Positions 4,095-57,799 of a DNA stretch of 64,000 bases are shown piece by piece (the stretch's first letter is position 1; each line of letters starts with the position of its first letter). A program made the translations under genes and the position numbers. The stretch is from the NCBI RefSeq assembly GCF_003334815.1, contig NZ_QOWO01000007.1; one strand, given 5' to 3'. Source of the DNA: Escherichia coli (GTDB lineage Bacteria > Pseudomonadota > Gammaproteobacteria > Enterobacterales > Enterobacteriaceae). The notes beneath the pieces were generated by a model. That model did no database searches. It was not told the origin of the DNA and worked only from the letters and a program-made list of their open reading frames with translations.

Positions 4095-4099
4095 TTGCT

Positions 4100-13777: not shown

Positions 13778-13925
13778 CGCTGGTTGATTTTCCGAATTTA
13801 GCCCTTAAATCATCAACAATGCGTGTGGATGCCATTTCGCAGACGGCGCGAAAATGGTACTTTAAAGGGCTATTGCGGTAAGTTGACCATAATTTATTCG
13901 CTCTAACCACATAACGGGAAGTAAT

Positions 13926-14234
13926 GTGAAATATTTACTCATTTTCTTACTGGTGTTAGCGATCTTCGTGATTTCGGTCACGTTGGGTGCGCAGAACGAT
14001 CAACAGGTGACGTTTAATTATCTGTTAGCGCAAGGGGAGTACCGTATTTCCACATTGCTGGCGGTATTGTTTGCTGCGGGGTTTGCTATCGGTTGGTTGA
14101 TTTGTGGCCTGTTCTGGCTGCGAGTTCGTGTTTCCCTGGCGCGCGCTGAACGTAAAATAAAGCGACTGGAAAACCAGCTTTCACCCGCGACTGACGTGGC
14201 TGTAGTGCCGCACTCGTCAGCGGCGAAGGAATAA
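13926..14234 (+). CDS. lapA: LPS assembly protein LapA (YciS)
   Basis: 102-aa ORF with a GTG start and two TM helices. It lies immediately upstream of lapB. Confidence 0.9.
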   Translation: MKYLLIFLLVLAIFVISVTLGAQNDQQVTFNYLLAQGEYRISTLLAVLFAAGFAIGWLICGLFWLRVRVSLARAERKIKRLENQLSPATDVAVVPHSSAAKE

Positions 14235-14240
14235 CTTTCT

Positions 14241-42707: not shown

Positions 42708-43066
42708 TGGCGGGCATTAATCTCAATAAAAAATTATGGCGTATTCCACAGCAGGGCATGGTCCGCGGCGTCTGCGCCGGGATTGCCAACTATTTTGATG
42801 TACCGGTAAAACTGGTGCGTATCCTGGTGGTGCTGTCGATTTTCTTCGGTCTGGCGCTGTTTACCCTGGTTGCTTACATCATTTTGTCATTTGCGCTTGA
42901 TCCAATGCCGGACAACATGGCCTTTGGTGAGCAGCTACCTTCCAGCAGCGAATTGCTGGATGAAGTCGACCGTGAACTGGCGGCAAGTGAAACGCGTTTA
43001 CGCGAGATGGAACGTTATGTCACTTCCGATACTTTCACGTTACGTAGCCGTTTCCGTCAACTGTGA
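42707..43066 (+). CDS. pspC: Phage shock protein C
   Basis: 119-aa ORF with a PspC domain and a central TM helix. Confidence 0.95.
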
Positions 43067-43074
43067 GGAAAGTT

Positions 43075-43296
43075 ATGAATACTCGCTGGCAACAGGCCGG
43101 GCAAAAGGTAAAGCCTGGTTTCAAATTAGCAGGCAAGCTGGTACTTCTTACCGCACTGCGCTATGGCCCGGCGGGTGTGGCGGGCTGGGCGATAAAATCA
43201 GTTGCTCGCCGACCGCTGAAAATGTTGCTGGCTGTGGCGCTGGAACCGCTGTTAAGTCGGGCTGCTAATAAACTGGCACAGCGTTATAAAAGGTGA
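43075..43296 (+). CDS. pspD: Phage shock protein D
   Basis: 73 aa from ATG 43075 (SD gagga), starting [21 protein letters not shown]... The track begins 4 codons earlier at a GTG. Confidence 0.9.
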
Positions 43297-43370
43297 GGGG
43301 AGTTTCGCAAAAATTGTTAAATCTCAGGCGTATAATGGATGGCAATTTTCATCCATAGAAGGACGCTTAC

Positions 43371-43685
43371 ATGTTTAAAAAAGGCTTACTTGCTCTGGCA
43401 CTGGTGTTTTCACTGCCCGTTTTCGCCGCTGAACACTGGATCGATGTTCGTGTTCCAGAGCAGTATCAGCAAGAGCACGTTCAGGGGGCCATCAATATTC
43501 CCCTGAAGGAAGTGAAAGAGCGCATTGCCACCGCCGTTCCGGATAAAAACGACACCGTGAAAGTGTATTGCAATGCCGGACGCCAGTCAGGGCAAGCAAA
43601 AGAGATCCTTAGCGAGATGGGATATACCCACGTTGAGAACGCCGGTGGCCTGAAAGACATCGCAATGCCGAAGGTCAAAGGTTAA
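43371..43685 (+). CDS. pspE: Periplasmic rhodanese (thiosulfate sulfurtransferase) PspE
   Basis: 104-aa ORF with signal peptide MFKKGLLALALVFSLPVFA and active-site loop CNAGRQS. Confidence 0.95.
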   Translation: MFKKGLLALALVFSLPVFAAEHWIDVRVPEQYQQEHVQGAINIPLKEVKERIATAVPDKNDTVKVYCNAGRQSGQAKEILSEMGYTHVENAGGLKDIAMPKVKG

Positions 43686-43701
43686 AAGAATTCACCATGA
43701 G

Positions 43702-43727
43702 CGGCGCTTATGCGCCGTTTTTTTTTC
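43702..43727 (+). terminator. psp operon intrinsic terminator
   Basis: cggcgc-ttat-gcgccg followed by T10. Confidence 0.85.
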
Positions 43728-43833
43728 TGTCACACCTTATTTACATCCCCATAGATTATTTGCGTCAGCTCACAAATACGCTTTTTCCCTGGTAAAAAAT
43801 GATTTCCTGCGTGACTAAAACCCTTGTGCTCAA

Positions 43834-43862
43834 TTGACAGTTTATTTTCTGCGGAGTAGTCT
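43834..43862 (+). promoter_or_regulatory. Candidate sigma70 promoter of ycjM
   Basis: A perfect -35 TTGACA (43834-43839), a 17-nt spacer and a weak -10 TAGTCT (43857-43862). The operator-like 15-mer starts about 9 nt downstream. Confidence 0.4.
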
Positions 43863-43870
43863 CTCGTTTC

Positions 43871-43885
43871 ATGGGACCGCTACCA
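43871..43885 (+). promoter_or_regulatory. LacI-family operator candidate (YcjW site 1)
   Basis: ATGGGACCGCTACCA has a central CG and half-sites TGGGACC / TGGTAGC (5/7 symmetric). It is identical to 53799-53813 and ends 12 nt before the ycjM ATG. Confidence 0.6.
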
Positions 43886-43897
43886 CGGAAAGGCAAC

Positions 43898-45577
43898 ATG
43901 AAACAGAAAATTACGGATTACCTGGACGAAATCTACGGTGGAACATTTACCGCAACTCATTTACAGAAACTTGTAACGCGTCTTGAGAGTGCGAAACGAT
44001 TAATTACACAGCGACGTAAAAAACACTGGGATGAAAGTGATGTCGTGTTAATTACCTATGCCGATCAATTTCACAGCAATGATTTAAAACCATTACCCAC
44101 ATTTAATCAGTTTTACCATCAATGGCTGCAAAGCATTTTTTCACATGTTCATTTGTTGCCGTTTTATCCATGGTCATCTGATGATGGCTTTTCGGTAATT
44201 GATTATCATCAGGTCGCCAGTGAAGCGGGGGAGTGGCAGGATATTCAGCAACTCGGTGAATGCAGTCATTTAATGTTTGATTTTGTCTGCAACCATATGT
44301 CGGCAAAAAGTGAATGGTTTAAAAACTATTTACAACAGCATCCAGGTTTTGAAGATTTTTTTATTGCCGTTGACCCGCAAACCGATCTCAGCGCCGTCAC
44401 TCGCCCGCGTGCGTTACCGTTATTAACGCCATTCCAGATGCGCGATCATTCAACGCGCCATTTATGGACCACCTTTAGTGACGATCAAATTGACCTGAAT
44501 TACCGTAGCCCTGAAGTGTTGCTGGCGATGGTGGATGTTTTACTCTGTTACCTTGCGAAAGGTGCTGAGTATGTCCGCCTGGATGCCGTTGGCTTTATGT
44601 GGAAAGAGCCGGGAACAAGCTGCATCCATCTGGAAAAAACACATCTGATTATCAAACTGTTACGGTCGATTATTGATAACGTTGCGCCAGGTACAGTGAT
44701 CATTACCGAGACCAATGTTCCGCATAAAGACAACATTGCTTACTTTGGCGCAGGCGATGACGAAGCACATATGGTGTACCAGTTCTCGCTGCCGCCACTG
44801 GTGCTGCATGCGGTGCAAAAACAGAACGTTGAGGCGCTTTGTGCGTGGGCGCAAAACCTGACACTACCTTCCAGCAACACCACCTGGTTTAACTTCCTCG
44901 CCTCTCACGATGGCATCGGGCTAAACCCGCTACGGGGCTTGTTGCCTGAAAGCGAAATATTAGAGCTGGTCGAGGCGTTACAGCAGGAAGGTGCATTAGT
45001 AAACTGGAAAAATAATCCCGACGGTACACGCAGTCCGTATGAAATAAATGTGACCTATATGGATGCGTTAAGCCGCCGTGAGAGTAGCGATGAAGAACGT
45101 TGCGCCAGGTTTATCCTTGCCCATGCGATTTTGTTAAGTTTCCCCGGTGTGCCAGCGATATATATTCAAAGTATTCTTGGCTCGCGTAATGATTACGCAG
45201 GTGTCGAAAAAATCGGATATAACCGTGCGATTAACCGTAAAAAATATCACAGTAAAGAGATAACCCGAGAACTGAACGATGAAGCTACATTAAGGCATGC
45301 GGTATATCATGAGTTGTCGCGTTTAATTACACTTCGTCGCAGCCATAACGAGTTTCATCCGGATAATAATTTTACCATTGATACGATTAATTCATCCGTA
45401 ATGCGTATTCAAAGAAGTAACGCTGATGGTAATTGTCTGACTGGATTGTTTAATGTCAGTAAAAATATTCAGCATGTAAATATTACTAATCTGCATGGTC
45501 GGGATCTGATTAGTGAAGTTGATATATTGGGTAATGAAATAACGCTGCGCCCCTGGCAGGTTATGTGGATTAAATAA
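43898..45577 (+). CDS. ycjM: GH13_18 sucrose-phosphorylase-like enzyme YcjM (reported glucosylglycerate phosphorylase)
   Basis: 559 aa from ATG 43898 (MKQKITDYLDEIYGG...), alpha-amylase-family fold. The track start at 43871 lies within the operator-like sequence. Confidence 0.92.
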   Translation: MKQKITDYLDEIYGGTFTATHLQKLVTRLESAKRLITQRRKKHWDESDVVLITYADQFHSNDLKPLPTFNQFYHQWLQSIFSHVHLLPFYPWSSDDGFSVIDYHQVASEAGEWQDIQQLGECSHLMFDFVCNHMSAKSEWFKNYLQQHPGFEDFFIAVDPQTDLSAVTRPRALPLLTPFQMRDHSTRHLWTTFSDDQIDLNYRSPEVLLAMVDVLLCYLAKGAEYVRLDAVGFMWKEPGTSCIHLEKTHLIIKLLRSIIDNVAPGTVIITETNVPHKDNIAYFGAGDDEAHMVYQFSLPPLVLHAVQKQNVEALCAWAQNLTLPSSNTTWFNFLASHDGIGLNPLRGLLPESEILELVEALQQEGALVNWKNNPDGTRSPYEINVTYMDALSRRESSDEERCARFILAHAILLSFPGVPAIYIQSILGSRNDYAGVEKIGYNRAINRKKYHSKEITRELNDEATLRHAVYHELSRLITLRRSHNEFHPDNNFTIDTINSSVMRIQRSNADGNCLTGLFNVSKNIQHVNITNLHGRDLISEVDILGNEITLRPWQVMWIK

Positions 45578-45590
45578 AAAGGAACATCTC

Positions 45591-46883
45591 ATGATTAAAT
45601 CAAAAATCGTGCTGTTATCAGCACTGGTTTCATGCGCCCTGATTTCAGGCTGTAAAGAAGAAAATAAAACGAATGTATCCATCGAATTTATGCATTCTTC
45701 GGTGGAGCAGGAGCGCCAGGCCGTTATCAGTAAATTGATTGCCCGTTTTGAAAAAGAAAACCCTGGCATCACCGTTAAGCAAGTGCCCGTGGAAGAAGAT
45801 GCCTATAACACTAAAGTCATTACTCTTTCACGTAGCGGTTCGCTGCCGGAAGTGATCGAAACCAGCCATGACTACGCCAAAGTGATGGACAAAGAGCAGC
45901 TTATCGATCGCAAAGCGGTTGCCACAGTCATCAGCAACGTTGGTGAAGGCGCGTTTTACGATGGCGTACTGCGTATTGTGCGTACCGAAGATGGTAGCGC
46001 ATGGACCGGTGTTCCTGTCAGCGCCTGGATTGGCGGTATCTGGTATCGCAAAGATGTGCTGGCAAAAGCGGGGCTTGAGGAGCCGAAAAACTGGCAACAG
46101 CTGCTGGACGTTGCACAGAAACTGAATGACCCGGCGAATAAAAAATACGGCATTGCGCTGCCTACAGCAGAAAGCGTGTTGACGGAACAATCCTTCTCCC
46201 AGTTTGCGTTATCCAACCAGGCTAACGTCTTTAACGCCGAAGGCAAAATCACCCTTGATACACCAGAGATGATGCAGGCACTGACCTATTACCGCGACCT
46301 TGCTGCCAACACTATGCCGGGTTCTAACGACATCATGGAAGTGAAAGACGCCTTTATGAACGGCACCGCGCCGATGGCGATTTACTCCACCTATATCCTT
46401 CCGGCTGTGATTAAAGAAGGCGACCCGAAAAACGTCGGTTTCGTGGTGCCAACCGAGAAAAACTCTGCGGTCTACGGCATGTTGACCTCGCTGACCATTA
46501 CCGCCGGGCAAAAGACCGAAGAGACGGAAGCAGCAGAAAAATTTGTCACCTTTATGGAGCAGGCAGACAACATTGCCGACTGGGTGATGATGTCGCCAGG
46601 TGCTGCGCTGCCGGTGAATAAAGCGGTGGTGACTACCGCCACCTGGAAAGACAACGACGTTATTAAGGCGCTGGGTGAACTACCGAATCAGCTAATCGGT
46701 GAACTGCCAAATATTCAGGTTTTTGGCGCAGTAGGGGATAAAAACTTTACCCGCATGGGTGATGTGACGGGTTCTGGCGTGGTGAGTTCAATGGTGCATA
46801 ACGTCACCGTGGGTAAAGCCGATCTCTCTACTACGCTGCAAGCGAGCCAGAAAAAACTGGATGAACTGATCGAACAGCACTAA
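45591..46883 (+). CDS. ycjN: Sugar ABC transporter substrate-binding lipoprotein YcjN
   Basis: 430-aa ORF with signal peptide and lipobox LISGC, family-1 solute-binding protein. Confidence 0.92.
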   Translation: MIKSKIVLLSALVSCALISGCKEENKTNVSIEFMHSSVEQERQAVISKLIARFEKENPGITVKQVPVEEDAYNTKVITLSRSGSLPEVIETSHDYAKVMDKEQLIDRKAVATVISNVGEGAFYDGVLRIVRTEDGSAWTGVPVSAWIGGIWYRKDVLAKAGLEEPKNWQQLLDVAQKLNDPANKKYGIALPTAESVLTEQSFSQFALSNQANVFNAEGKITLDTPEMMQALTYYRDLAANTMPGSNDIMEVKDAFMNGTAPMAIYSTYILPAVIKEGDPKNVGFVVPTEKNSAVYGMLTSLTITAGQKTEETEAAEKFVTFMEQADNIADWVMMSPGAALPVNKAVVTTATWKDNDVIKALGELPNQLIGELPNIQVFGAVGDKNFTRMGDVTGSGVVSSMVHNVTVGKADLSTTLQASQKKLDELIEQH

Positions 46884-46903
46884 ACCCAGGACAGGAATCC
46901 GCA

Positions 46904-47785
46904 ATGAACAGGCTTTTTTCAGGTCGTTCCGATATGCCCTTTGCGCTGCTGCTTCTCGCGCCCAGCTTATTACTGCTGGGCGGTCTGGTGGCGTGGCCGA
47001 TGGTGTCGAATATCGAAATCAGTTTTTTACGTCTGCCGCTCAATCCCAACATCGAGTCAACGTTTGTTGGGGTGAGCAACTATGTGCGTATCCTCTCCGA
47101 TCCCGGCTTCTGGCATTCGCTGTGGATGACGGTCTGGTATACCGCGCTGGTGGTGGCGGGCAGCACCGTGCTCGGGCTGGCGGTGGCGATGTTTTTCAAC
47201 CGCGAGTTCCGCCTGCGCAAAACCGCGCGTTCGCTGGTGATCCTCTCCTACGTAACGCCGTCCATTTCGCTGGTGTTCGCCTGGAAATACATGTTCAACA
47301 ACGGCTACGGCATTGTTAACTACCTCGGCGTCGATCTTCTGCATCTCTATGAGCAGGCACCGCTGTGGTTCGATAATCCGGGCAGTAGCTTTGTGCTGGT
47401 GGTGCTGTTCGCCATCTGGCGCTACTTCCCGTATGCCTTTATCTCGTTTCTGGCGATTTTGCAGACCATCGACAAATCGCTGTACGAAGCGGCAGAGATG
47501 GATGGCGCTAATGCCTGGCAACGGTTTCGTATCGTCACGCTGCCCGCAATTATGCCGGTCCTGGCGACGGTGGTGACACTGCGCACCATCTGGATGTTCT
47601 ACATGTTCGCGGATGTTTATTTGCTGACGACCAAGGTCGATATTCTCGGTGTATATCTCTACAAAACCGCCTTTGCCTTTAATGATTTAGGAAAAGCGGC
47701 GGCGATCTCGGTGGTGCTCTTCATCATTATTTTCGCTGTCATTCTGCTGACCAGGAAACGGGTGAACCTCAATGGCAACAAATAA
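46904..47785 (+). CDS. ycjO: Sugar ABC transporter permease YcjO (MalF/UgpA type)
   Basis: 293-aa polytopic ORF with EAA-loop region LYEAAEMDGANAWQRF. Confidence 0.92.
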   Translation: MNRLFSGRSDMPFALLLLAPSLLLLGGLVAWPMVSNIEISFLRLPLNPNIESTFVGVSNYVRILSDPGFWHSLWMTVWYTALVVAGSTVLGLAVAMFFNREFRLRKTARSLVILSYVTPSISLVFAWKYMFNNGYGIVNYLGVDLLHLYEQAPLWFDNPGSSFVLVVLFAIWRYFPYAFISFLAILQTIDKSLYEAAEMDGANAWQRFRIVTLPAIMPVLATVVTLRTIWMFYMFADVYLLTTKVDILGVYLYKTAFAFNDLGKAAAISVVLFIIIFAVILLTRKRVNLNGNK

Positions 47786-48614
47786 ACGCACACTCAGTCG
47801 CATCGGTTTTTACTGCGAGCTGGCGCTGTTTCTCATCATCACGCTGTTTCCATTTTTTGTGATGCTGATGACCTCGTTCAAGGGCGCGAAAGAGGCGATC
47901 TCACTGCATCCTACGCTGCTGCCGCAGCAGTGGACGCTGGAGCATTACGTCGACATTTTTAACCCGATGATTTTCCCGTTTGTCGACTACTTCCGTAACA
48001 GTCTGGTGGTGTCTGTGGTTTCATCCGTGGTGGCGGTATTCCTCGGCATTCTTGGGGCTTACGCGCTTTCCCGCCTGCGCTTTAAAGGTCGGATGACCAT
48101 CAACGCCAGCTTTTACACGGTGTATATGTTCTCTGGCATTTTGCTGGTGGTGCCGCTTTTCAAAATCATCACCGCGCTTGGCATTTACGACACTGAGATG
48201 GCGCTGATCATCACCATGGTGACGCAAACTCTGCCCACCGCCGTGTTTATGCTGAAAAGCTACTTCGACACCATCCCCGATGAGATCGAAGAAGCGGCGA
48301 TGATGGATGGCCTCAACCGTCTGCAAATTATCTTCCGCATCACCGTGCCGTTGGCGATGTCCGGGCTGATATCCGTGTTCGTCTACTGCTTTATGGTGGC
48401 GTGGAACGACTATCTGTTTGCGTCGATTTTCCTCTCCAGCGCCAGCAATTTCACCTTACCGGTGGGCCTGAACGCGCTGTTCAGTACGCCAGATTACATC
48501 TGGGGACGGATGATGGCGGCCTCACTGGTGACCGCATTGCCGGTGGTGATTATGTATGCGCTTTCGGAACGTTTTATTAAGAGTGGTTTGACCGCCGGTG
48601 GCGTGAAGGGCTAA
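47772..48614 (+). CDS. ycjP: Sugar ABC transporter permease YcjP (MalG/UgpE type)
   Basis: 280-aa polytopic ORF with EAA loop IEEAAMMDGLNRLQIF. It overlaps ycjO by 14 nt. Confidence 0.92.
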   Translation: MATNKRTLSRIGFYCELALFLIITLFPFFVMLMTSFKGAKEAISLHPTLLPQQWTLEHYVDIFNPMIFPFVDYFRNSLVVSVVSSVVAVFLGILGAYALSRLRFKGRMTINASFYTVYMFSGILLVVPLFKIITALGIYDTEMALIITMVTQTLPTAVFMLKSYFDTIPDEIEEAAMMDGLNRLQIIFRITVPLAMSGLISVFVYCFMVAWNDYLFASIFLSSASNFTLPVGLNALFSTPDYIWGRMMAASLVTALPVVIMYALSERFIKSGLTAGGVKG

Positions 48615-48644
48615 AGCGGCCAGTTTCTTTACAAGGAGTTTTAA

Positions 48645-49697
48645 ATGAAAAAGTTAGTAGCCACAGCACCGCGTGTTGCTGCGCTGGTTGAGTATGAAGA
48701 TCGGGCGATTTTAGCTAATGAAGTGAAGATCCGCGTGCGTTTCGGCGCACCGAAACACGGAACGGAAGTGGTCGACTTCCGCGCCGCCAGCCCGTTTATT
48801 GATGAAGACTTTAACGGCGAATGGCAGATGTTCACTCCGCGTCCGGCAGATGCGCCGCGCGGCATTGAGTTTGGCAAATTCCAGCTTGGCAACATGGTGG
48901 TTGGCGACATTATCGAGTGCGGCAGCGACGTTACCGACTACGCGGTGGGCGACAGCGTATGCGGCTACGGCCCGCTCTCCGAGACGGTCATCATTAACGC
49001 TGTGAATAACTACAAGCTGCGCAAAATGCCGCAAGGCAGCTCCTGGAAAAACGCCGTCTGCTACGACCCGGCGCAGTTTGCCATGAGCGGCGTGCGCGAT
49101 GCCAACGTGCGCGTAGGGGATTTTGTGGTGGTGGTAGGGCTTGGCGCAATCGGTCAAATTGCCATCCAACTGGCTAAACGCGCTGGCGCTTCTGTGGTGA
49201 TTGGCGTCGATCCTATCGCCCATCGCTGTGATATTGCCCGTCGCCACGGCGCGGATTTCTGCCTTAACCCCATCGGCACTGATGTAGGTAAAGAGATCAA
49301 AACGCTGACCGGCAAGCAGGGTGCCGATGTGATTATCGAAACCAGCGGCTACGCCGACGCGCTGCAATCGGCGCTCCGCGGTCTGGCTTATGGCGGCACC
49401 ATCTCCTATGTCGCGTTTGCCAAGCCGTTTGCCGAAGGTTTTAACCTCGGACGCGAAGCGCATTTCAATAACGCCAAAATTGTCTTCTCTCGCGCGTGCA
49501 GCGAACCGAACCCGGATTATCCGCGCTGGAGCCGCAAGCGTATTGAAGAAACCTGTTGGGAACTGCTGATGAACGGTTATCTCAATTGCGAAGATTTAAT
49601 CGACCCGGTGGTGACCTTTGCCAATAGCCCGGAAAGCTATATGCAGTATGTCGACCAGCATCCGGAACAGAGCATCAAAATGGGCGTTACGTTTTAA
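48645..49697 (+). CDS. ycjQ: Zn-dependent medium-chain dehydrogenase YcjQ (reported D-guloside 3-dehydrogenase)
   Basis: 350-aa ORF, MDR family, with NAD-binding GLGAIG. Confidence 0.9.
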   Translation: MKKLVATAPRVAALVEYEDRAILANEVKIRVRFGAPKHGTEVVDFRAASPFIDEDFNGEWQMFTPRPADAPRGIEFGKFQLGNMVVGDIIECGSDVTDYAVGDSVCGYGPLSETVIINAVNNYKLRKMPQGSSWKNAVCYDPAQFAMSGVRDANVRVGDFVVVVGLGAIGQIAIQLAKRAGASVVIGVDPIAHRCDIARRHGADFCLNPIGTDVGKEIKTLTGKQGADVIIETSGYADALQSALRGLAYGGTISYVAFAKPFAEGFNLGREAHFNNAKIVFSRACSEPNPDYPRWSRKRIEETCWELLMNGYLNCEDLIDPVVTFANSPESYMQYVDQHPEQSIKMGVTF

Positions 49698-49715
49698 TTC
49701 AAAGGAATGAAAAAA

Positions 49716-50504
49716 ATGAAAATCGGCACACAGAATCAGGCGTTCTTTCCGGAAAACATTCTGGAGAAATTTCGTTATATCAAAGAGATGGGCTTCGATG
49801 GTTTTGAGATTGACGGCAAACTGCTGGTTAACAACATCGAAGAAGTCAAAGCGGCGATCAAAGAAACCGGTTTACCGGTGACCACCGCCTGCGGTGGCTA
49901 TGACGGATGGATTGGCGACTTTATCGAAGAGCGTCGTCTTAATGGCTTAAAGCAGATCGAGCGCATTCTCGAAGCGCTGGCAGAAGTGGGCGGTAAAGGC
50001 ATCGTCGTTCCGGCTGCGTGGGGCATGTTTACCTTCCGCTTACCGCCGATGACCTCGCCGCGTAGCCTGGACGGCGACCGCAAAATGGTGAGTGATTCCC
50101 TGCGCGTACTGGAACAGGTCGCCGCGCGTACCGGAACCGTGGTGTATCTCGAACCGTTAAACCGCTATCAGGATCATATGATCAACACCCTCGCCGATGC
50201 CCGCCGTTACATCGTCGAAAACGATCTTAAACATGTACAGATTATCGGCGATTTCTATCACATGAATATCGAAGAAGATAACCTGGCGCAGGCGCTGCAT
50301 GACAACCGCGACCTGCTCGGTCATGTGCATATTGCGGATAACCATCGCTACCAGCCGGGCAGCGGCACCCTGGATTTCCACGCGCTGTTTGAACAGCTGC
50401 GCGCGGATAACTATCAGGGCTATGTAGTGTACGAAGGGCGTATCCGGGCGGAAGATCCTGCCCAGGCGTACCGTGATTCGTTGGCCTGGTTGCGTACCTG
50501 CTAA
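49716..50504 (+). CDS. ycjR: Xylose-isomerase-like TIM-barrel epimerase YcjR (reported 3-keto-D-guloside 4-epimerase)
   Basis: 262 aa from ATG 49716. SD aaagga at 49701-49706 fits this start better than ATG 49707. Confidence 0.9.
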   Translation: MKIGTQNQAFFPENILEKFRYIKEMGFDGFEIDGKLLVNNIEEVKAAIKETGLPVTTACGGYDGWIGDFIEERRLNGLKQIERILEALAEVGGKGIVVPAAWGMFTFRLPPMTSPRSLDGDRKMVSDSLRVLEQVAARTGTVVYLEPLNRYQDHMINTLADARRYIVENDLKHVQIIGDFYHMNIEEDNLAQALHDNRDLLGHVHIADNHRYQPGSGTLDFHALFEQLRADNYQGYVVYEGRIRAEDPAQAYRDSLAWLRTC

Positions 50505-50513
50505 GAGGTCTTT

Positions 50514-51569
50514 GTGAAAAGTGCAATGACAAGCTCTCCGCTGCGGGTCGCGATAATAGGCGCAGGCCAGGTGGCGGATAAGGTTCATGCTTCGTACTAC
50601 TGCACCCGCAACGATCTGGAACTGGTGGCTGTCTGTGACAGCCGCCTTTCCCAGGCGCAGGCGCTGGCAGAAAAATACGGGAATGCATCCGTGTGGGACG
50701 ATCCGCAGGCCATGCTGCTGGCGGTGAAACCTGATGTGGTTAGCGTCTGCTCACCTAACCGTTTTCATTACGAACATACCCTGATGGCACTGGAAGCGGG
50801 CTGCCATGTGATGTGCGAAAAACCGCCCGCCATGACGCCAGAACAGGCGCGGGAAATGTGCGATACCGCGCGCAAACTGGGCAAGGTGCTGGCCTACGAC
50901 TTTCACCATCGTTTTGCGCTCGATACGCAACAGCTGCGTGAACAGGTGACCAACGGCGTTTTGGGAGAGATTTACGTTACCACCGCCCGCGCCCTGCGTC
51001 GCTGCGGCGTTCCCGGCTGGGGTGTCTTTACCAATAAAGAACTGCAGGGTGGTGGCCCGCTGATCGACATCGGCATTCATATGCTGGATGCTGCGATGTA
51101 TGTGCTGGGCTTTCCGGCGGTGAAAAGCGTGAATGCGCATAGCTTTCAAAAGATCGGCACGCAAAAGAGCTGTGGTCAATTTGGTGAGTGGGATCCGGCA
51201 ACTTACAGCGTCGAAGATTCGCTGTTTGGCACCATTGAATTTCATAACGGCGGCATTCTGTGGCTGGAAACGTCATTTGCACTCAACATCCGCGAACAGT
51301 CGATTATGAACGTCAGCTTTTGTGGTGATAAAGCTGGTGCGACGCTGTTTCCAGCACATATCTACACCGATAACAACGGTGAATTAATGACGCTGATGCA
51401 ACGGGAAATGGCAGACGACAACCGCCATTTGCGCAGCATGGAAGCCTTTATCAATCACGTACAGGGCAAGCCCGTGATGATAGCCGACGCCGAGCAGGGG
51501 TACATCATCCAGCAACTGGTGGCGGCGTTGTATCAATCCGCAGAAACAGGGACGCGTGTGGAATTATGA
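50514..51569 (+). CDS. ycjS: Gfo/Idh/MocA-family oxidoreductase YcjS (reported D-glucoside 3-dehydrogenase)
   Basis: 351-aa ORF with a GTG start and N-terminal Rossmann motif RVAIIGAGQVA. Confidence 0.9.
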   Translation: MKSAMTSSPLRVAIIGAGQVADKVHASYYCTRNDLELVAVCDSRLSQAQALAEKYGNASVWDDPQAMLLAVKPDVVSVCSPNRFHYEHTLMALEAGCHVMCEKPPAMTPEQAREMCDTARKLGKVLAYDFHHRFALDTQQLREQVTNGVLGEIYVTTARALRRCGVPGWGVFTNKELQGGGPLIDIGIHMLDAAMYVLGFPAVKSVNAHSFQKIGTQKSCGQFGEWDPATYSVEDSLFGTIEFHNGGILWLETSFALNIREQSIMNVSFCGDKAGATLFPAHIYTDNNGELMTLMQREMADDNRHLRSMEAFINHVQGKPVMIADAEQGYIIQQLVAALYQSAETGTRVEL

Positions 51570-53833
51570 CCAGGCCAGTAACGTTATCAGAACCCCATTT
51601 CAGCCAGCATACCCTGAACAAGTATGCATCGCTGATGGCGCAGGGGAACGGCTATCTTGGGCTTCGCGCCAGCCATGAAGAAGATTACACGCGCCAGACG
51701 CGAGGGATGTATCTGGCGGGGCTGTATCATCGGGCGGGAAAAGGTGAAATCAACGAACTGGTGAACCTGCCTGATGTCGTGGGGATGGAGATTGCCATAA
51801 ATGGTGAGGTTTTCTCGTTATCCCACGAAGCCTGGCAGCGTGAGCTTGACTTTGCCAGTGGCGAATTACGCCGCAATGTTGTCTGGCGTACCAGCAACGG
51901 CTCAGGTTACACCATCGCCAGCCGTCGCTTTGTTTCGGCAGACCAACTGCCGCTCATTGCGCTGGAAATCACTATTACGCCACTGGACGCCGACGCGTCA
52001 GTGCTGATTTCAACAGGCATTGACGCCACGCAAACCAATCACGGTCGCCAACATCTCGACGAAACCCAGGTGCGGGTGTTTGGTCAGCATCTGATGCAGG
52101 GGAGCTACACCACCCAGGATGGACGCAGTGATGTGGCCATCAGCTGTTGCTGTAAGGTGAGCGGTGATGTGCAGCAATGCTATACCGCCAAAGAGCGCCG
52201 TTTACTGCAACATACCAGTGCGCAGCTTCATGCAGGCGAGACAATGACGTTGCAAAAACTGGTGTGGATCGACTGGCGGGATGACAGGCAAGCTGCTTTA
52301 GACGAGTGGGGCAGCGCGTCGCTTCGCCAGCTTGAAATGTGCGCGCAGCAGAGTTACGACCAACTTCTTGCAGCATCAACAGAAAACTGGCGTCAATGGT
52401 GGCAGAAACGTCGTATCACGGTAAATGGCGGCGAAGCGCACGATCAGCAAGCGTTAGATTATGCGCTTTATCATCTGCGCATCATGACGCCTGCCCACGA
52501 CGAGCGCAGCAGCATTGCGGCAAAAGGCTTAACCGGCGAAGGCTACAAAGGCCACGTTTTCTGGGATACAGAAGTATTTTTGTTACCGTTTCATCTGTTT
52601 AGCGATCCGACGGTTGCCCGAAGTTTACTGCGTTATCGCTGGCACAACTTGCCAGGCGCGCAGGAGAAAGCGCGACGCAACGGCTGGCAGGGCGCGCTAT
52701 TTCCGTGGGAAAGCGCGCGCAGCGGCGAAGAAGAGACGCCGGAATTTGCCGCCATTAACATTCGCACCGGGCTGCGGCAAAAAGTGGCCTCGGCGCAGGC
52801 GGAACATCATCTGGTGGCCGATATCGCCTGGGCGGTTATTCAATACTGGCAGACCACGGGGGATGAAAGTTTCATTGCGCATGAAGGCATGGCGCTACTT
52901 CTGGAGACGGCAAAGTTCTGGATTAGCCGCGCGGTGAGAGTTAACGATCGTCTGGAAATTCATGATGTTATTGGGCCAGACGAATATACCGAACATGTCA
53001 ATAATAATGCATACACCAGCTATATGGCCCGCTACAACGTTCAACAGGCGCTGAATATTGCCCGCCAGTTCGGCTGTAGCGACGATGCGTTTATCCATCG
53101 CGCCGAAATGTTCCTCAAAGAGCTATGGATGCCAGAAATTCAGCCCGACGGCGTTTTGCCGCAGGATGATTCGTTTATGGCTAAGCCGGCGATTAATCTG
53201 GCGAAATACAAAGCGGCGGCGGGGAAGCAAACCATACTGCTGGATTATTCACGCGCAGAAGTGAACGAGATGCAGATCCTCAAACAAGCTGATGTGGTGA
53301 TGCTCAATTACATGCTGCCGGAGCAGTTCTCAGCGGCATCGTGTCTTGCCAATCTGCAATTTTATGAACCGCGCACTATTCACGACTCGTCATTAAGTAA
53401 AGCAATCCACGGCATTGTTGCCGCACGCTGTGGCCTGCTGACCCAAAGTTATCAGTTCTGGCGCGAGGGGACTGAAATCGATCTTGGTGCTGATCCGCAT
53501 AGTTGTGATGATGGTATCCATGCTGCCGCAACTGGCGCTATCTGGCTGGGGGCGATTCAGGGTTTTGCCGGGGTGAGCGTGCGTGACGGTGAATTGCATC
53601 TCAATCCGGCGTTACCTGAGCAGTGGCAACAGTTGTCTTTCCCTCTGTTCTGGCAGGGCTGCGAATTACAGGTCACTCTTGACGCGCAGCGTATTGCGAT
53701 TCGAACTTCTGCGCCCGTTTCACTGCGTTTGAACGGTCAGCTTATAACCGTGGCTGAAGAATCTGTTTTCTGTTTGGGTGATTTTATTTTGCCCTTCAAT
53801 GGGACCGCTACCAAACATCAGGAGGATGAATGA
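51566..53833 (+). CDS. ycjT: GH65 kojibiose phosphorylase YcjT
   Basis: 755-aa ORF of the GH65 maltose/kojibiose phosphorylase family. It has 4-nt overlaps with ycjS and ycjU. Confidence 0.93.
53799..53813 (+). promoter_or_regulatory. LacI-family operator candidate (YcjW site 2) inside the 3' end of ycjT
   Basis: ATGGGACCGCTACCA is identical to 43871-43885. It ends 16 nt before the ycjU ATG. Confidence 0.6.
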
Positions 53834-54489
53834 AACTGCAAGGGGTAATTTTCGATCTGGATGGTGTAATCACCGATACCGCGCATCTGCATTTCCAGGC
53901 GTGGCAGCAGATTGCCGCTGAAATTGGCATCAGCATTGATGCGCAGTTTAACGAATCCCTAAAAGGGATCAGCCGCGATGAGTCTCTGCGGCGCATTCTG
54001 CAACACGGGGGCAAAGAGGGCGACTTTAACTCGCAGGAGAGGGCGCAACTGGCGTATCGCAAAAATCTGCTCTATGTCCACTCACTACGCGAGTTGACGG
54101 TCAACGCTGTTCTACCCGGCATTCGCTCTTTGCTGGCAGATCTCCGTGCACAGCAGATCTCGGTTGGGCTGGCTTCTGTCTCCCTGAATGCGCCGACGAT
54201 TTTAGCGGCGCTGGAGCTGCGCGAGTTTTTCACCTTCTGCGCGGATGCTTCCCAACTTAAAAACTCGAAACCGGACCCGGAAATCTTTCTCGCCGCCTGT
54301 GCAGGGCTGGGCGTGCCGCCGCAGGCATGTATCGGCATTGAAGATGCGCAGGCGGGCATTGACGCCATTAACGCCAGCGGTATGCGCTCGGTGGGGATCG
54401 GCGCGGGCTTAACCGGGGCGCAATTACTGTTGCCTTCAACGGAATCACTCACCTGGCCGCGGTTATCGGCCTTCTGGCAAAACGTATAG
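53830..54489 (+). CDS. ycjU: Beta-phosphoglucomutase YcjU (HAD superfamily)
   Basis: 219-aa ORF with HAD motif [11 protein letters not shown]. Confidence 0.94.
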
Positions 54490-54502
54490 CAAAGGAATCA
54501 AC

Positions 54503-55585
54503 ATGGCTCAGCTTTCGTTACAACATATTCAAAAAATCTACGATAACCAGGTGCATGTGGTGAAGGACTTCAACCTGGAAATTGCCGATAAAGAGTTCAT
54601 CGTGTTTGTCGGCCCGTCGGGCTGCGGTAAGTCGACCACCCTGCGCATGATTGCCGGGCTTGAGGAGATCAGCGGCGGCGATCTGTTGATCGACGGCAAA
54701 CGAATGAATGACGTTCCAGCCAAAGCACGCAATATAGCGATGGTGTTCCAGAACTACGCGTTGTATCCGCATATGACGGTTTACGACAACATGGCGTTTG
54801 GTCTGAAGATGCAAAAAATCGCCAAAGAGGTGATTGATGAGCGGGTGAACTGGGCGGCGCAAATTCTCGGCCTGCGTGAGTACCTGAAACGTAAGCCGGA
54901 GGCGCTTTCCGGCGGGCAACGTCAGCGAGTGGCGCTTGGGCGGGCGATTGTACGCGAAGCGGGCGTGTTTTTAATGGATGAACCGCTCTCTAACCTTGAT
55001 GCCAAGCTGCGCGTGCAAATGCGCGCAGAGATCAGCAAGCTGCATCAGAAACTGAACACCACCATGATCTACGTGACCCACGATCAGACCGAAGCGATGA
55101 CCATGGCGACGCGGATTGTGATTATGAAAGACGGGATTGTTCAGCAAGTAGGTGCGCCGAAAACCGTTTATAACCAACCCGCGAATATGTTTGTTTCCGG
55201 ATTTATTGGATCACCAGCGATGAATTTTATTCGCGGCACGATCGATGGCGATAAATTCGTTACGGAAACGCTTAAATTAACCATTCCCGAAGAGAAATTA
55301 GCGGTTCTGAAAACACAGGAAAGTTTGCATAAGCCCATCGTGATGGGAATACGACCGGAAGATATTCATCCGGACGCGCAAGAGGAAAATAACATTTCCG
55401 CCAAAATTAGCGTGGCAGAATTAACCGGTGCGGAATTTATGCTCTACACCACGGTTGGGGGGCACGAGTTAGTGGTCCGTGCTGGTGCGTTAAATGATTA
55501 TCATGCAGGAGAAAATATCACTATTCATTTTGATATGACGAAATGTCATTTCTTTGATGCAGAAACGGAAATAGCAATTCGCTAA
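54503..55585 (+). CDS. ycjV: MalK/UgpC-type ABC transporter ATPase YcjV
   Basis: 360-aa uninterrupted ORF with Walker A GPSGCGKST, signature LSGGQRQR, Walker B FLMDEPLSNLD and a C-terminal TOBE-like domain. I recall pseudogene flags for this gene in some K-12 annotations, but the frame is open here. Confidence 0.88.
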   Translation: MAQLSLQHIQKIYDNQVHVVKDFNLEIADKEFIVFVGPSGCGKSTTLRMIAGLEEISGGDLLIDGKRMNDVPAKARNIAMVFQNYALYPHMTVYDNMAFGLKMQKIAKEVIDERVNWAAQILGLREYLKRKPEALSGGQRQRVALGRAIVREAGVFLMDEPLSNLDAKLRVQMRAEISKLHQKLNTTMIYVTHDQTEAMTMATRIVIMKDGIVQQVGAPKTVYNQPANMFVSGFIGSPAMNFIRGTIDGDKFVTETLKLTIPEEKLAVLKTQESLHKPIVMGIRPEDIHPDAQEENNISAKISVAELTGAEFMLYTTVGGHELVVRAGALNDYHAGENITIHFDMTKCHFFDAETEIAIR

Positions 55586-55629
55586 ATACAGGGGGAAGGC
55601 ATTCCCCCAGGATAATACAAGGAACAATA

Positions 55630-56535
55630 ATGAAAAAGTTATTACCCTGTACCGCACTGGTGATGTGTGCGGGAATGGCCTGCGCACAGGCCGAGGAAAG
55701 GAACGACTGGCACTTTAATATCGGCGCGATGTACGAAATAGAAAACGTCGAGGGTTATGGCGAAGATATGGATGGGCTGGCGGAGCCTTCAGTCTATTTT
55801 AATGCCGCCAACGGGCCGTGGAGAATTGCTCTGGCCTATTATCAGGAAGGGCCGGTAGATTATAGCGCGGGTAAACGTGGAACGTGGTTTGATCGCCCGG
55901 AGCTGGAGGTGCATTATCAGTTCCTCGAAAACGATGATTTCAGTTTCGGCCTGACCGGCGGTTTCCGTAATTATGGTTATCACTACGTTGATGAACCGGG
56001 TAAAGACACGGCGAATATGCAGCGCTGGAAAATCGCGCCAGACTGGGATGTGAAACTGACTGACGATTTACGTTTCAACGGTTGGTTGTCGATGTATAAA
56101 TTTGCCAACGATCTGAACACTACCGGTTACGCTGATACCCGTGTCGAAACGGAAACAGGTCTGCAATATACCTTCAACGAAACGGTTGCCTTGCGAGTGA
56201 ACTATTATCTCGAGCGCGGCTTCAATATGGACGACAGCCGCAATAACGGTGAGTTTTCCACGCAAGAAATTCGCGCCTATTTGCCGCTGACGCTCGGCAA
56301 CCACTCGGTGACGCCGTATACGCGCATTGGGCTGGATCGCTGGAGTAACTGGGACTGGCAGGATGATATTGAACGTGAAGGCCATGATTTTAACCGTGTA
56401 GGTTTATTTTACGGTTATGATTTCCAGAACGGACTTTCCGTTTCGCTGGAATACGCGTTTGAGTGGCAGGATCACGACGAAGGCGACAGTGATAAATTCC
56501 ATTATGCAGGTGTCGGCGTAAATTACTCGTTCTGA
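55630..56535 (+). CDS. ompG: Monomeric 14-strand outer-membrane porin OmpG
   Basis: 301-aa ORF with signal peptide MKKLLPCTALVMCAGMACAQA, alternating beta-strand pattern and a C-terminal ...GVGVNYSF. Confidence 0.95.
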   Translation: MKKLLPCTALVMCAGMACAQAEERNDWHFNIGAMYEIENVEGYGEDMDGLAEPSVYFNAANGPWRIALAYYQEGPVDYSAGKRGTWFDRPELEVHYQFLENDDFSFGLTGGFRNYGYHYVDEPGKDTANMQRWKIAPDWDVKLTDDLRFNGWLSMYKFANDLNTTGYADTRVETETGLQYTFNETVALRVNYYLERGFNMDDSRNNGEFSTQEIRAYLPLTLGNHSVTPYTRIGLDRWSNWDWQDDIEREGHDFNRVGLFYGYDFQNGLSVSLEYAFEWQDHDEGDSDKFHYAGVGVNYSF

Positions 56536-56548
56536 TAATGGGCTAAAT

Positions 56549-56624
56549 TGCCGGATGCGGCGCGAGTACTTTATCCGATCTATAAATGTAGGCCGGATAA
56601 GATGCGCTAGCATCGCATCTGGCA
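56549..56624. repeat. BIME: two inverted REP units between ompG and ycjW
   Basis: The two units are tgccggatgcggcgcgagtactttatccga and gtaggccggataagatgcgctagcatcgcatctggca. Confidence 0.8.
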
Positions 56625-56645
56625 TTCAGGCAAGGTAGCTGGTAT

Positions 56646-57644
56646 TTATTTCAGCGTCATATGCGTGGCAACGGTAATATTCTGTGGTGACGGTTTTCCA
56701 GAAATTAAGCGGAATAATAACTCGCAGCTTTGTTGACCTAACTCCTGCGTCGGAACATCGATGCCGCCCGGTGCAGGCGTTAAAATAAATGACAGCGTTT
56801 CATTGCTATAACCCACCACCGCTAACTGCTGCGGAATAGCAATATTTTTCTCTGCTGCCGCACGATAAATGCTCATTAATTTCAGGCTGTCAGTGGCAAA
56901 CACCGCCTCAGGCAACGGTGACTGGCTTAATAATTGCCGTGCTGCTTTTAATGCAGTTTCATGGGTATAACCGCCATCAACAATCCATTCATCACGCACT
57001 GCAATATTATGCGCAGCCAGGCTCTGCTTATAACCATTAACGCGATCAACCGAAACATGGACATCAAGCGGAGCATGCAGGCAGGCAATATTTTGATGCC
57101 CACTTTCAATTAATGCATCGGTCAACGCAATGCTGTCGCCAAAATTATCGGTATCGACAGAATAAACATGGGCATATTGACCTTCAACTTTGCCAATCAC
57201 CACCACCGGAATATCATATTTATCGAGTTGGGCAAAAAATGACTCATCCGCTGGCGAACTGAGCATAATAATGCCTTTAATCATTTTCTGCTTAATTTTG
57301 CTTTCGCATTTTTGCAGATCTTCTGCCGGATTGTGCGACGTTTGTAATATCACGTCGAAACCTTCTTCTTCAGCTTTGGCGGTGATGGCATGCAAAACTT
57401 CAGAGAAAAACGGATTACCCGCCGTAGTTTTGGTCGAACGGGTAGAAATCACCATAATGGCATCAAAACCCGAAGAGGTCAGCGCGCGGGCCAGCTTGTT
57501 TGGCTGATACTGTAATTCTTCAATGGCCCGTAACACTTTTTCGCGCGCTTCCGGGGAGATATTAGTTTGCTTATTCAGCACGCGTGATACGGTGGATTTT
57601 GATACGCCTGCAACCCTGGCAATATCATAAATAGTAGGGGACAT
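56646..57644 (-). CDS. ycjW: LacI-family repressor YcjW
   Basis: 332-aa ORF with [24 protein letters not shown] and a periplasmic-binding-protein-like sensor domain. Confidence 0.94.
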
Positions 57645-57717
57645 AGGTCAGGAACTCCGTCCGAACGTGAATGCTGCACATCTTATGGAGTTCGCCGGTC
57701 GATGACAACACGGGCAG

Positions 57718-57745
57718 TTGATAATCAATGGCCTGGCCCCCACAT
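57718..57745 (+). promoter_or_regulatory. Candidate sigma32 (heat-shock) promoter of ycjX-ycjF
   Basis: TTGATA, a 14-nt spacer, then CCCCACAT, which resembles CTTGAAA-N13-15-CCCCATNT. It lies 55 nt upstream of the ycjX ATG. Confidence 0.4.
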
Positions 57746-57799
57746 TCATATCCTTACGAATGATTTTTTTTCTGGTCTTCAGAGCAGCACAGGACAGCA

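Follow-up and report, generated by a model that had tools for sequence, protein, structure and literature searches.

Which compound does the ycjM-ompG block of Escherichia coli serve to import and degrade? The block consists of eleven tightly packed genes on one strand, with the repressor gene ycjW convergent to them, and we examined it in a stretch of 64,000 nucleotides of E. coli DNA (contig NZ_QOWO01000007.1 of assembly GCF_003334815.1), hereafter the window. The locus is already known and named, its gene order being that of MG1655 b1309-b1320, with the same eleven genes between pspE and ycjW/ycjX, and it is among the largest E. coli operons whose enzymes have been characterized in vitro but which have no assigned physiological role. 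The original prediction, made from the letters of the window, held the natural substrate and the cargo of the importer and the porin to be unresolved, in agreement with published work (PMC11543891; PMC6599011), and in the literature up to mid-2026 we found no work defining the physiological substrate or the ligand of the binding protein YcjN. Our comparative analysis indicates that the block is one mobile system shared between phyla, and that D-glycerate is very probably a real product of its pathway. On balance, we lean towards a function in the import and degradation of alpha-1,2-glucosides ending in D-glycerate, namely, glucosylglycerate and/or a slightly larger glycoside built on it.

The ycj genes are inherited together in two phyla

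Relatives of the block were gathered with an alignment scan for YcjR, one genome per species, from which the best 80 of 212 species, all of them Enterobacterales, were used, and gene order in these species was read by tblastn with the window proteins. The Bacillota context was obtained from exact-protein look-ups, a metagenome scan with 419 hits and a plasmid collection. The order M-N-O-P-Q-R-S-T-U-V-ompG, with W next on the opposite strand, is invariant in about 78 of the 80 Enterobacterales species, and genera with the block include Escherichia, Citrobacter, Salmonella (arizonae and diarizonae), Enterobacter, Lelliottia, Scandinavium, Buttiauxella, Dryocola, Atlantibacter, Budvicia, Limnobaculum, Rahnella and Serratia. 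The co-occurrence profile that the original prediction had proposed as a check was thus run, and it returned a nearly constant arrangement. In at least nine Enterobacterales species the block lies away from ycjX/ycjF, and in Aeromonas allosaccharophila the full block, in the same order, adjoins CbeA, RadC and DUF2787 genes, neighbors that are typical of mobile islands.

A nine-gene core, M-N-O-P-Q-R-S-T-U, with a divergent LacI gene, is found in Listeria, Planococcus, Bacillus, Priestia and 20 metagenome loci, in the order GH13 (glycoside hydrolase family 13), binding protein, two permeases, Zn-dehydrogenase, TIM-barrel protein, Gfo/Idh/MocA protein, GH65 and beta-phosphoglucomutase. Identities between Bacillota-type copies and E. 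coli are 69-78% for O, 68-79% for P, 71-79% for Q and 69-73% for R; 55-61% for S, 48-60% for N and 48-53% for T; 40-56% for both M and U; and 55-63% between the LacI protein and YcjW. The range for P excludes metagenome locus L134, where an unrelated ATP-binding cassette (ABC) system replaces the transporter and Q, R, S, T, M and U stay together. The region before the first Bacillota gene holds one to three copies of the 14-nt TGGGAGCGGTACCA or of a variant differing by 1-2 bases, and 10 of the 14 Bacillota-type loci examined have, some 30 nt upstream, a cre-like AGAAAGCGCTTTCT or a near match to it. The cassette is plasmid-borne in both phyla: 65 plasmids match it, including 55 Enterobacter records, and 56 of the 65 are typed as conjugative.

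Since the order of the core, the repressor and the operator recur in Bacillota and on plasmids, the block is one mobile system across phyla. That it represents two independently acquired operons is excluded by synteny across Enterobacterales, Aeromonas, Bacillota, locus L134 and the plasmids. ycjV and ompG are additions confined to the Gram-negative versions, ompG invariably closing the block in Enterobacterales and Aeromonas and being missing from the Bacillota loci. The earlier view that the activities encoded here do not add up to one obvious pathway has, therefore, to be revised in part: the enzymes are co-inherited across phyla with an in-operon glycerate kinase, so they almost certainly form one pathway.

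A glycerate kinase embedded in the cassette

The clue to the product comes from a gene that most copies of E. coli type do not carry in the operon. Eighteen Bacillota-type loci continue for 1.3 kb or more past the GH65 gene, and 13 of them have a glycerate kinase gene (PF02595) on the same strand within 2.5 kb. Several of the loci are near-duplicates, which leaves about 10 of 14 distinct lineages. The kinase gene follows the GH65 gene by 20-28 nt in ten loci, follows the beta-phosphoglucomutase gene in two, and lies between the GH13 and beta-phosphoglucomutase genes in one; in Listeria monocytogenes NCTC7974 the glycerate kinase, as annotated, overlaps the stop codon of GH65 on one side and the start codon of pgmB on the other. 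The sole Enterobacterales case among the best 80 of 212 species is Limnobaculum allomyrinae, where a 379-aa glycerate kinase (PF02595, 448 bits) is located between ycjT and ycjU, that is, where most other Enterobacterales have the second YcjW operator described below.

An association between genes for glucosylglycerate phosphorylase and glycerate kinase is already known in general (PMC7178133). What is new is the kinase embedded in this cassette, between the GH65 and beta-phosphoglucomutase genes, a position that brings the step yielding glycerate and the step of kojibiose type into a single transcription unit. Because of these in-operon kinases, in the Bacillota-type loci and in Limnobaculum, glycerate is very probably a real product of the ycj pathway.

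Two conserved operators for YcjW

The window contains two identical copies of the 14-mer TGGGACCGCTACCA, termed O1 and O2 (Table 1). O1 is a near-palindrome with a central CG, placed 9 bases past the -10 element of a candidate ycjM promoter and ending 12 nt before the ycjM ATG, whereas O2 lies in the final ycjT codons, with 16 nt between its end and the ycjU ATG. By itself, a pair of identical 14-mers in 64 kb carries no significance, chance being plausible, and it is their position, their conservation and published chromatin immunoprecipitation (ChIP) data that give them meaning as operators. The position of O1 coincides with a ChIP-seq peak and with the probe of an electrophoretic mobility shift assay, and that of O2 with the second peak, 'between ycjT and ycjU' (PMC6599011).

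O1 is kept upstream of ycjM in 77 of 78 Enterobacterales species, and both operators are present in 74 of the 78, one roughly 25 nt ahead of ycjM and the other ahead of ycjU by 21-45 nt, in most cases 26-30. The 14-mer of O2 remains constant while the neighboring ycjT codons diverge, and in Buttiauxella, Dryocola and Serratia both operators take the variant form TGGGAGCGGTACCA, in opposite orientations. The candidate -35 element of ycjM is invariant in 13 genera, at a fixed distance from the operator, and in these genera the -10 element varies between TAGTCT and TAGATT, with TAGCCT in a single genus. This ycjM promoter was absent from the output of the promoter scan. Neither the scan nor the sequence revealed a convincing sigma-70 promoter before O2. 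A conserved GATTTTxTTT upstream of O2 may reflect the ycjT coding sequence. O2 may act through an internal promoter, giving a ycjU-ycjV-ompG transcript, or as a roadblock to elongation.

With sites where they would be expected, upstream of ycjM and at the ycjT/ycjU junction, the block is predicted to belong to the YcjW regulon, for which published experiments are available. Deletion of ycjW strongly derepresses ycjM, ycjT, ycjU and ompG, and 0.5-1 mM kojibiose, but not trehalose or sucrose, frees YcjW from DNA; MG1655 does not grow with kojibiose as sole carbon source, and the authors concluded that kojibiose is perhaps not the natural inducer (PMC6599011). Mutations in ycjW rise repeatedly, alongside lacI and malI mutations, in two independent mouse-colonization studies, which suggests that derepression of the ycj block is beneficial in the gut.

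The enzymes

For each gene of the block, Pfam and NCBIfam agree with the protein family named in the original prediction. The in vitro activities given there, namely, kojibiose phosphorylase, glucosylglycerate phosphorylase and interconversion of 3-keto-glucosides and gulosides, match the MG1655 RefSeq product names: glucosylglycerate phosphorylase, kojibiose phosphorylase, beta-phosphoglucomutase and repressor YcjW, together with D-guloside 3-dehydrogenase, 3-dehydro-D-guloside 4-epimerase and D-glucoside 3-dehydrogenase for the trio YcjQ, YcjR and YcjS.

YcjM has a GH13 alpha-amylase domain and its best NCBIfam model is sucrose phosphorylase, at 222.7 bits against a cut-off of 334.4, a shortfall consistent with YcjM not being a sucrose phosphorylase. 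It carries at residue 270 the TETN motif that is the signature of glucosylglycerate phosphorylase (GGaP, EC 2.4.1.352; motif from PMC7178133), as do all 15 GH13 homologs examined, 14 from Bacillota-type loci and one from Aeromonas (L086), so that its predicted identity as a GGaP has the expected sequence signature. The E. coli enzyme is reported to be strict for phosphorolysis of 2-O-alpha-glucosyl-D-glycerate, to alpha-glucose 1-phosphate together with D-glycerate, and to be inactive on sucrose (PMC7178133).

YcjT shows the N-terminal, middle and C-terminal domains of GH65, and its closest solved structure is the Caldicellulosiruptor kojibiose phosphorylase CsKP (3WIQ, E = 1.7e-116), which ranks ahead of glucosylglycerol phosphorylase and maltose phosphorylase. 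Both its architecture and its nearest relative thus point to a GH65 kojibiose phosphorylase (EC 2.4.1.230), an enzyme that converts an alpha-1,2-glucoside and phosphate into beta-glucose 1-phosphate and the acceptor. The kcat/Km of YcjT for kojibiose is reportedly low (Mukherjee 2018). According to a 2024 review of GH65, YcjT is the only characterized kojibiose phosphorylase that is inactive on longer alpha-1,2-glucans (PMC11442529). Going by the title of Isono 2023, cited in the same review, it glucosylates O2 of the glucose unit of sucrose, and an acceptor glucose bearing a small aglycone at its anomeric carbon would therefore be tolerated. YcjU is placed above the cut-off of the beta-phosphoglucomutase equivalog TIGR01990 (274.8 bits against 189.4).

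The remaining three enzymes form the dehydrogenase and epimerase trio. YcjQ belongs to the Zn-dependent alcohol dehydrogenases according to Pfam and NCBIfam, and no solved relative was found at E <= 1e-20. YcjR is a xylose-isomerase-like TIM barrel, and a 100% identical PDB chain, 6WN6, is named '3-keto-D-glucoside 4-epimerase'. YcjS is a Gfo/Idh/MocA oxidoreductase, nearest among solved structures to the DgpA C-glycoside 3-oxidases (E = 1e-60 to 1e-63), and it scores far below the NCBIfam cut-offs for glycoside 3-dehydrogenase (33.9 against 750), disaccharide 3-dehydrogenase (37.9 against 650) and levoglucosan dehydrogenase (75.3 against 650). YcjS works like the C3 glycoside oxidases BT_2158, BT_2159 and levoglucosan dehydrogenase, yet it falls outside their families.

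The importer, the porin and the ycjV lesion of K-12

With one SBP_bac_1 binding protein, two BPD_transp_1 permeases and one MalK-like ATPase, YcjNOPV fits what would be expected of a CUT1-type carbohydrate ABC importer. The identity of YcjO and YcjP is 82-100% within Enterobacterales and 68-79% with the copies in Bacillota, YcjV contains the OB/TOBE domains of MalK/UgpC-type ATPases (Pfam, NCBIfam), and OmpG matches Porin_OmpG (PF09381, 328.8 bits, residues 25-299).

YcjN, whose own structure is PDB 8VQK, is a lipoprotein acylated on Cys21 (PMC11543891). Its lipobox LISGC, which includes this cysteine, is conserved across phyla, and the subsequent ..IEFMHSSVEQ is kept in the binding proteins of both. 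The shared lipobox explains why E. coli has an unusual lipidated binding protein, and it suggests that the cassette has a Gram-positive origin, the direction of transfer being our reading of this feature. Kojibiose, glucose, maltose and the other compounds screened gave no thermal stabilization of YcjN, whose ligand 'remains unknown' (PMC11543891), and for the orthologous structures 7V09 and 8ULA we found no associated paper naming a ligand. A 2025 paper ascribes maltose and ethidium transport to YcjN from the phenotypes of a K-12 deletion strain (PMC13053599). This assignment is weak: it conflicts with the nano differential scanning fluorimetry (nanoDSF) result, its assays are indirect, and it was made in K-12.

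The choice of strain matters, as the ycjV of MG1655 has a 1-nt deletion at nt 955 of 1083, loses the last ~40 residues and is annotated as the pseudogenes ycjV and ymjB, whereas that of the window is intact (54503-55585 against 13822-14903 of MG1655 locus L087). Of 4996 E. coli genomes, 369 have the frameshifted allele, and most of these are laboratory derivatives. Both of the studies with negative or ambiguous physiology that we examined used K-12 strains (PMC6599011; PMC13053599), and the lesion undermines the negative growth results obtained with K-12.

A catabolic model and its alternatives

According to the reading towards which we lean, YcjW acts on two identical operators, O1 over the ycjM transcript start and O2 just before ycjU, and is freed by a kojibiose-like alpha-1,2-glucoside, regulation that has been shown in the literature. 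OmpG may pass solutes of di- to trisaccharide size, which the lipoprotein YcjN, with YcjO, YcjP and YcjV, would bring into the cell. YcjT would take off the alpha-1,2-linked glucose as beta-glucose 1-phosphate, as it does in vitro on kojibiose, and YcjM would split glucosylglycerate, again an activity seen in vitro, into alpha-glucose 1-phosphate along with D-glycerate. YcjU would convert beta-glucose 1-phosphate into glucose 6-phosphate, the housekeeping Pgm would take the alpha-anomer, and glycerate would be taken by a glycerate kinase, whose gene is part of the operon in most Bacillota versions but, in E. coli, is located at other sites of the genome (garK, glxK). YcjQ, YcjR and YcjS, in line with their in vitro activities, may turn gulo-configured or 3-keto glycosides into gluco-configured ones for the phosphorylases. 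A catabolic, import-linked role is favored by the ABC importer, the porin, the disaccharide-released repressor of LacI type and the ycjW mutants selected in the gut.

Several points weigh against this reading. In nature, D-gulosides occur very rarely, encounters of E. coli with glucosylglycerate in the gut are not known, and the model offers no compelling reason for YcjQRS. The role of the trio is its weakest point; its guloside-to-glucoside chemistry is established in vitro. The proposed link of the importer and repressor to glucosylglycerate or to glycerate glycosides is read from sequence. Enterobacterales other than Limnobaculum have no in-operon kinase, nor do four Bacillota-type loci (L082, L092, L093 and L134), and given the known linkage between GGaP and kinase genes, the kinase supports the role of YcjM better than that of the whole block. 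Finally, kojibiose, the substrate of YcjT, did not stabilize YcjN in nanoDSF, in a screen that was without glucosylglycerate and glucosides (PMC11543891).

The reading can be sharpened into a serial scheme, which we put forward tentatively and regard as unlikely in this exact form. Here the cargo would be an X-alpha-(1->2)-alpha-glucosyl-(1->2)-D-glycerate, X being glucose or a gulo-configured sugar, and YcjQRS would convert the guloside into a glucoside, YcjT would free beta-glucose 1-phosphate, YcjM would split the resulting glucosylglycerate, and the kinase and mutases would finish. Such a scheme would leave none of the enzymes unused in a cassette that is invariably passed on complete, and it sits well with the reportedly low kcat/Km of YcjT for kojibiose, its inactivity on longer alpha-1,2-glucans and its glucosylation of sucrose at the glucose O2. 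The Bacillus JJ722 order Q-R-S-T-M-K-U tracks the proposed order of reactions, although gene order is weak evidence, and the use of glucosylglycerate as an acceptor by YcjT is a putative activity. Moreover, we know of no such natural compound, the glucosylglucosylglycerates known to us being alpha-1,6-linked. If, on the other hand, the importer takes kojibiose, glucosylglycerate and gulosides alike, the enzyme sets would be independent, forming a tool-kit and not a linear pathway. This possibility, which we also consider unlikely, agrees with each in vitro activity being self-standing (annotation; PMC11543891), with kojibiose by itself freeing YcjW, and with the absence of the kinase from some Bacillota loci. 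It would not lead one to expect strict co-inheritance of the enzymes over two phyla, even with a swapped transporter (L134), and YcjN, which kojibiose does not stabilize, and MG1655, which fails to grow on kojibiose, though with a defective ycjV, also speak against it.

Two further proposals depart from phosphorolysis of intact glycerate glycosides. Oxidative cleavage, in which YcjS would oxidize C3 of a glycoside and YcjR would be a lyase or isomerase of the 3-keto product, the guloside chemistry being a side activity, draws on the proximity of YcjS to the DgpA oxidases and on the membership of YcjR in the xylose-isomerase-like TIM-barrel superfamily of their partner enzymes. We regard it as improbable, considering that the YcjR structure was deposited as a 3-keto-D-glucoside 4-epimerase, that YcjS lies far below the cut-offs for related 3-dehydrogenases, that the module is always joined to two phosphorylases requiring intact glucosides, and that YcjQ has no counterpart in those systems. 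Still less credible, in our judgment, is a role outside catabolism, be it synthesis of glucosylglycerate as an osmoprotectant by phosphorylases working in the reverse direction, maltose or ethidium transport, or control of PspE-dependent H2S production. Deletion of ycjM did raise the glycerate titer of an engineered strain (PMC8788829), deletion of ycjN gave the maltose and ethidium phenotypes (PMC13053599), and pspE is derepressed in the ycjW deletion strain (PMC6599011). However, the importer, the porin, the catabolic repressor, the Bacillota cre-like site and the in-operon kinase point to catabolism; maltose did not stabilize YcjN, and the maltose work used K-12 with its frameshifted ycjV; and pspE is without a YcjW site, has its own terminator before the ycj promoter and is not beside ycjM in most genera.

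Returning to the degradation of glycerate-ending alpha-1,2-glucosides, a fuller scenario can be drawn, which as a whole we take to be doubtful. The substrate would be a small, undescribed D-glycerate glycoside that bears its second sugar in alpha-1,2 linkage and is produced by microbes of soil, plants or the gut, and the cassette would have arisen in Bacillota and passed, with operator and lipoprotein, to Enterobacterales, which added ycjV and ompG. If so, the compound could be, for example, alpha-glucosyl- or alpha-gulosyl-(1->2)-alpha-glucosyl-(1->2)-D-glycerate, degraded stepwise by YcjQRS, YcjT and YcjM, and then by the kinase and two phosphoglucomutases.

Comparison with known systems

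The K-12 cluster b1309-b1320 has the same locus, order and products as the window, and its ycjV differs at two positions only, being a pseudogene by the 1-nt deletion where the window copy is intact. The lmo2831-lmo2841 cluster of L. monocytogenes and those of Bacillus, Planococcus and Priestia have nine genes in common with the window, in unchanged order, as well as an orthologous LacI protein, the same 14-nt operator and a lipoprotein binding protein. They differ in lacking the porin and usually the ATPase gene, in usually having the kinase in the operon, in their cre-like site, and in the repressor gene, which is divergent and upstream in Bacillota but convergent and downstream in E. coli.

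The kojibiose clusters of thermophiles (Thermoanaerobacter, Caldicellulosiruptor and Pyrococcus sp. ST04) have in common with the ycj block the pair of GH65 and beta-phosphoglucomutase genes, which yields glucose 6-phosphate. We know of no GH13 glucosylglycerate phosphorylase and of no dehydrogenase/epimerase trio linked to them. Other characterized kojibiose phosphorylases act on longer alpha-1,2-glucans, unlike, reportedly, YcjT (PMC11442529). The GGaP loci of the glucosylglycerate producers Allomeiothermus silvanus and Spirochaeta thermophila resemble ycj in their TETN phosphorylase of GH13_18 type and in a frequent link to glycerate kinase (PMC7178133), but they are often linked to the synthesis genes gpgS and gpgP and serve turnover of the organism's own solute, whereas the ycj block has an importer and a porin and no synthesis genes, which argues for an external source of its substrate. 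Finally, DgpA with DgpB-C, the levoglucosan enzyme Lgd and Bacteroides BT2158/BT2159 share with the trio the C3 oxidation by a Gfo/Idh/MocA enzyme followed by a TIM-barrel enzyme acting on the 3-keto sugar. In contrast to these systems, YcjR, to judge from its PDB name, epimerizes C4 without glycosidic cleavage, and YcjQ, a second dehydrogenase, would reduce the epimer.

Organization and variation of the locus

The open reading frame listing and the RefSeq annotation of strain ML35 agree on the tightly packed block that the original prediction had described, eleven plus-strand genes and a ycjW of opposite orientation, and the annotation places pspE upstream of it and ycjX with ycjF downstream. 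Several E. coli chromosomes, that of ML35 among them, match the 15-kb stretch 43000-58000 at 100% identity, and intergenic spacing across the eleven genes ranges from -14 to +44 nt. The ycjM start in Table 1 is the annotated ATG; a longer ycjM reading frame from 43871 was rejected, as its start falls within the operator and is not conserved in other genera. The pspE terminator separates the psp operon from the ycj block.

Table 1. Coordinates of features at the ycj locus, numbered from the first nucleotide of the window.
Feature	Coordinates	Strand	Remarks
pspE intrinsic terminator	43699..43729	+	GC-rich hairpin and T run; terminator scan and sequence
Candidate ycjM promoter	43834..43862	+	-35 TTGACA 43834-43839, 17-nt spacer, -10 TAGTCT 43857-43862
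Operator O1, TGGGACCGCTACCA	43872..43885	+	Predicted YcjW site; pattern search
ycjM	43898..45577	+	GH13 glucosylglycerate phosphorylase
ycjN	45591..46883	+	Lipoprotein substrate-binding protein of ABC importer
ycjO	46904..47785	+	ABC permease
ycjP	47772..48614	+	ABC permease; 14-nt overlap with ycjO
ycjQ	48645..49697	+	Zn-dependent dehydrogenase, annotated D-guloside 3-dehydrogenase
ycjR	49716..50504	+	Xylose-isomerase-like TIM barrel, 3-keto-D-glucoside / 3-keto-D-guloside 4-epimerase
ycjS	50514..51569	+	Gfo/Idh/MocA D-glucoside 3-dehydrogenase
ycjT	51566..53833	+	GH65 kojibiose phosphorylase
Operator O2, identical to O1	53800..53813	+	Predicted YcjW site; pattern search
ycjU (pgmB)	53830..54489	+	Beta-phosphoglucomutase
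ycjV	54503..55585	+	MalK/UgpC-type ABC ATPase, intact, 360 aa
GC-rich hairpin GGGGGAAGGCATTCCCCC	55591..55608	+	In the 44-nt ycjV-ompG gap; sequence and scan
ompG	55630..56535	+	Monomeric outer-membrane porin
ycjW	56646..57644	-	LacI-family repressor, convergent with ompG

No plus-strand T run follows the hairpin between ycjV and ompG. Between the convergent ompG and ycjW, positions 56540-56625 hold palindromic sequence resembling repetitive extragenic palindromes (gccggatgcggcg...). An Rfam search of 43000-58000 gave no match, and a search for repeats within the block found, apart from the two operators, repeats at chance level only. GC content is 43-46% in ycjM (44000-46000), which is distinctly AT-rich, 51-57% from ycjN to ycjV (46000-55000), and 47-48% in ompG and ycjW.

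The block is nearly core yet dispensable in E. coli: at least 80% of it is present in 4943 of 5426 complete genomes, while 375 of the 5426 have no match to 43700-57700 although the flanks are present. Some copies carry insertion sequences (IS30 in strain CX04; a split ycjM in strain 123636), and six matches to 43700-57700 are on E. coli records labeled as plasmids. Between genera, ycjM, ycjT, ycjU and ompG diverge faster (45-76% identity at the extremes) than ycjO, ycjP, ycjQ, ycjR and ycjV (76-97%).

A few records depart from the common pattern. In Siccibacter colletis (L053, 10804-13082), the only partial block of the set runs from ycjM to a ycjS cut to 313 aa, which gives way to an unrelated gene of opposite orientation, and the genes from ycjT to ycjW are missing. 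Two loci from records titled Enterobacter hormaechei (L002, B17-3; L007, B56) combine Enterobacter-like ycjM, N, S, T and U (63-86%) with ycjO, ycjP, ycjQ and ycjR 95-100% identical to E. coli, and L002 also has E. coli-identical ycjX and ycjF; this mosaic reflects either recombination with E. coli DNA or a chimeric assembly. Records titled Chryseobacterium sp. 18061 (L065) and named Vibrio cholerae (P0061) contain an Enterobacterales-type ycj locus or YcjR (81-83%), with ycjX and ycjF flanks in L065, and are probably mislabeled or contaminated. In the Enterobacterales-type block of metagenome contig ERZ773156.62 (L126), tblastn matched none of ycjO, ycjP and ycjQ over half or more of its length in the interval from ycjN to ycjR, which could be a deletion or an assembly gap.

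Among the plasmids, the one examined, the 369-kb IncHI2A plasmid pFJMB80011_1 of E. hormaechei (L168; NZ_AP025783.1, 205845-228866) has captured a chromosomal segment in the order qnrB6, pspF, pspABCD, ycjN..ompG, ycjW, pspE, ycjX, ycjF, tyrR, tpx, the placement of pspE after ycjW being of Citrobacter type. ycjM is missing from the PLSDB gene table, with a gap at 4064-5950, and the ycj block seems to have hitch-hiked with qnrB6. In Listeria ilorinensis (L082, 18728-20795), about 4 kb downstream of the cassette, a further LacI gene is present along with one for a GH94 beta-1,2-oligoglucan phosphorylase (SOGP domains), which places a beta-1,2-glucan cluster close to an alpha-1,2-glucoside cassette. 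The Listeria genes lmo2834-lmo2837, orthologs of ycjS, ycjR, ycjQ and ycjP, are SigB-dependent in strain H7858 under bile and acid (PMC5808219), which hints at stress-linked expression of the cassette.

Implications

To what was known of this locus we add its cross-phylum synteny, including the operator, the in-operon glycerate kinase, the conservation of two operators, the ycjV lesion of K-12 and the carriage on plasmids. The cassette moves between phyla, and in Enterobacter it is found on IncHI2 resistance plasmids beside qnrB6. As loss of ycjW function is repeatedly selected in the gut, the substrate is probably relevant in the animal gut, and the comparative results narrow the question of its identity to glycerate-bearing alpha-1,2-glucosides in a strain with intact ycjV.

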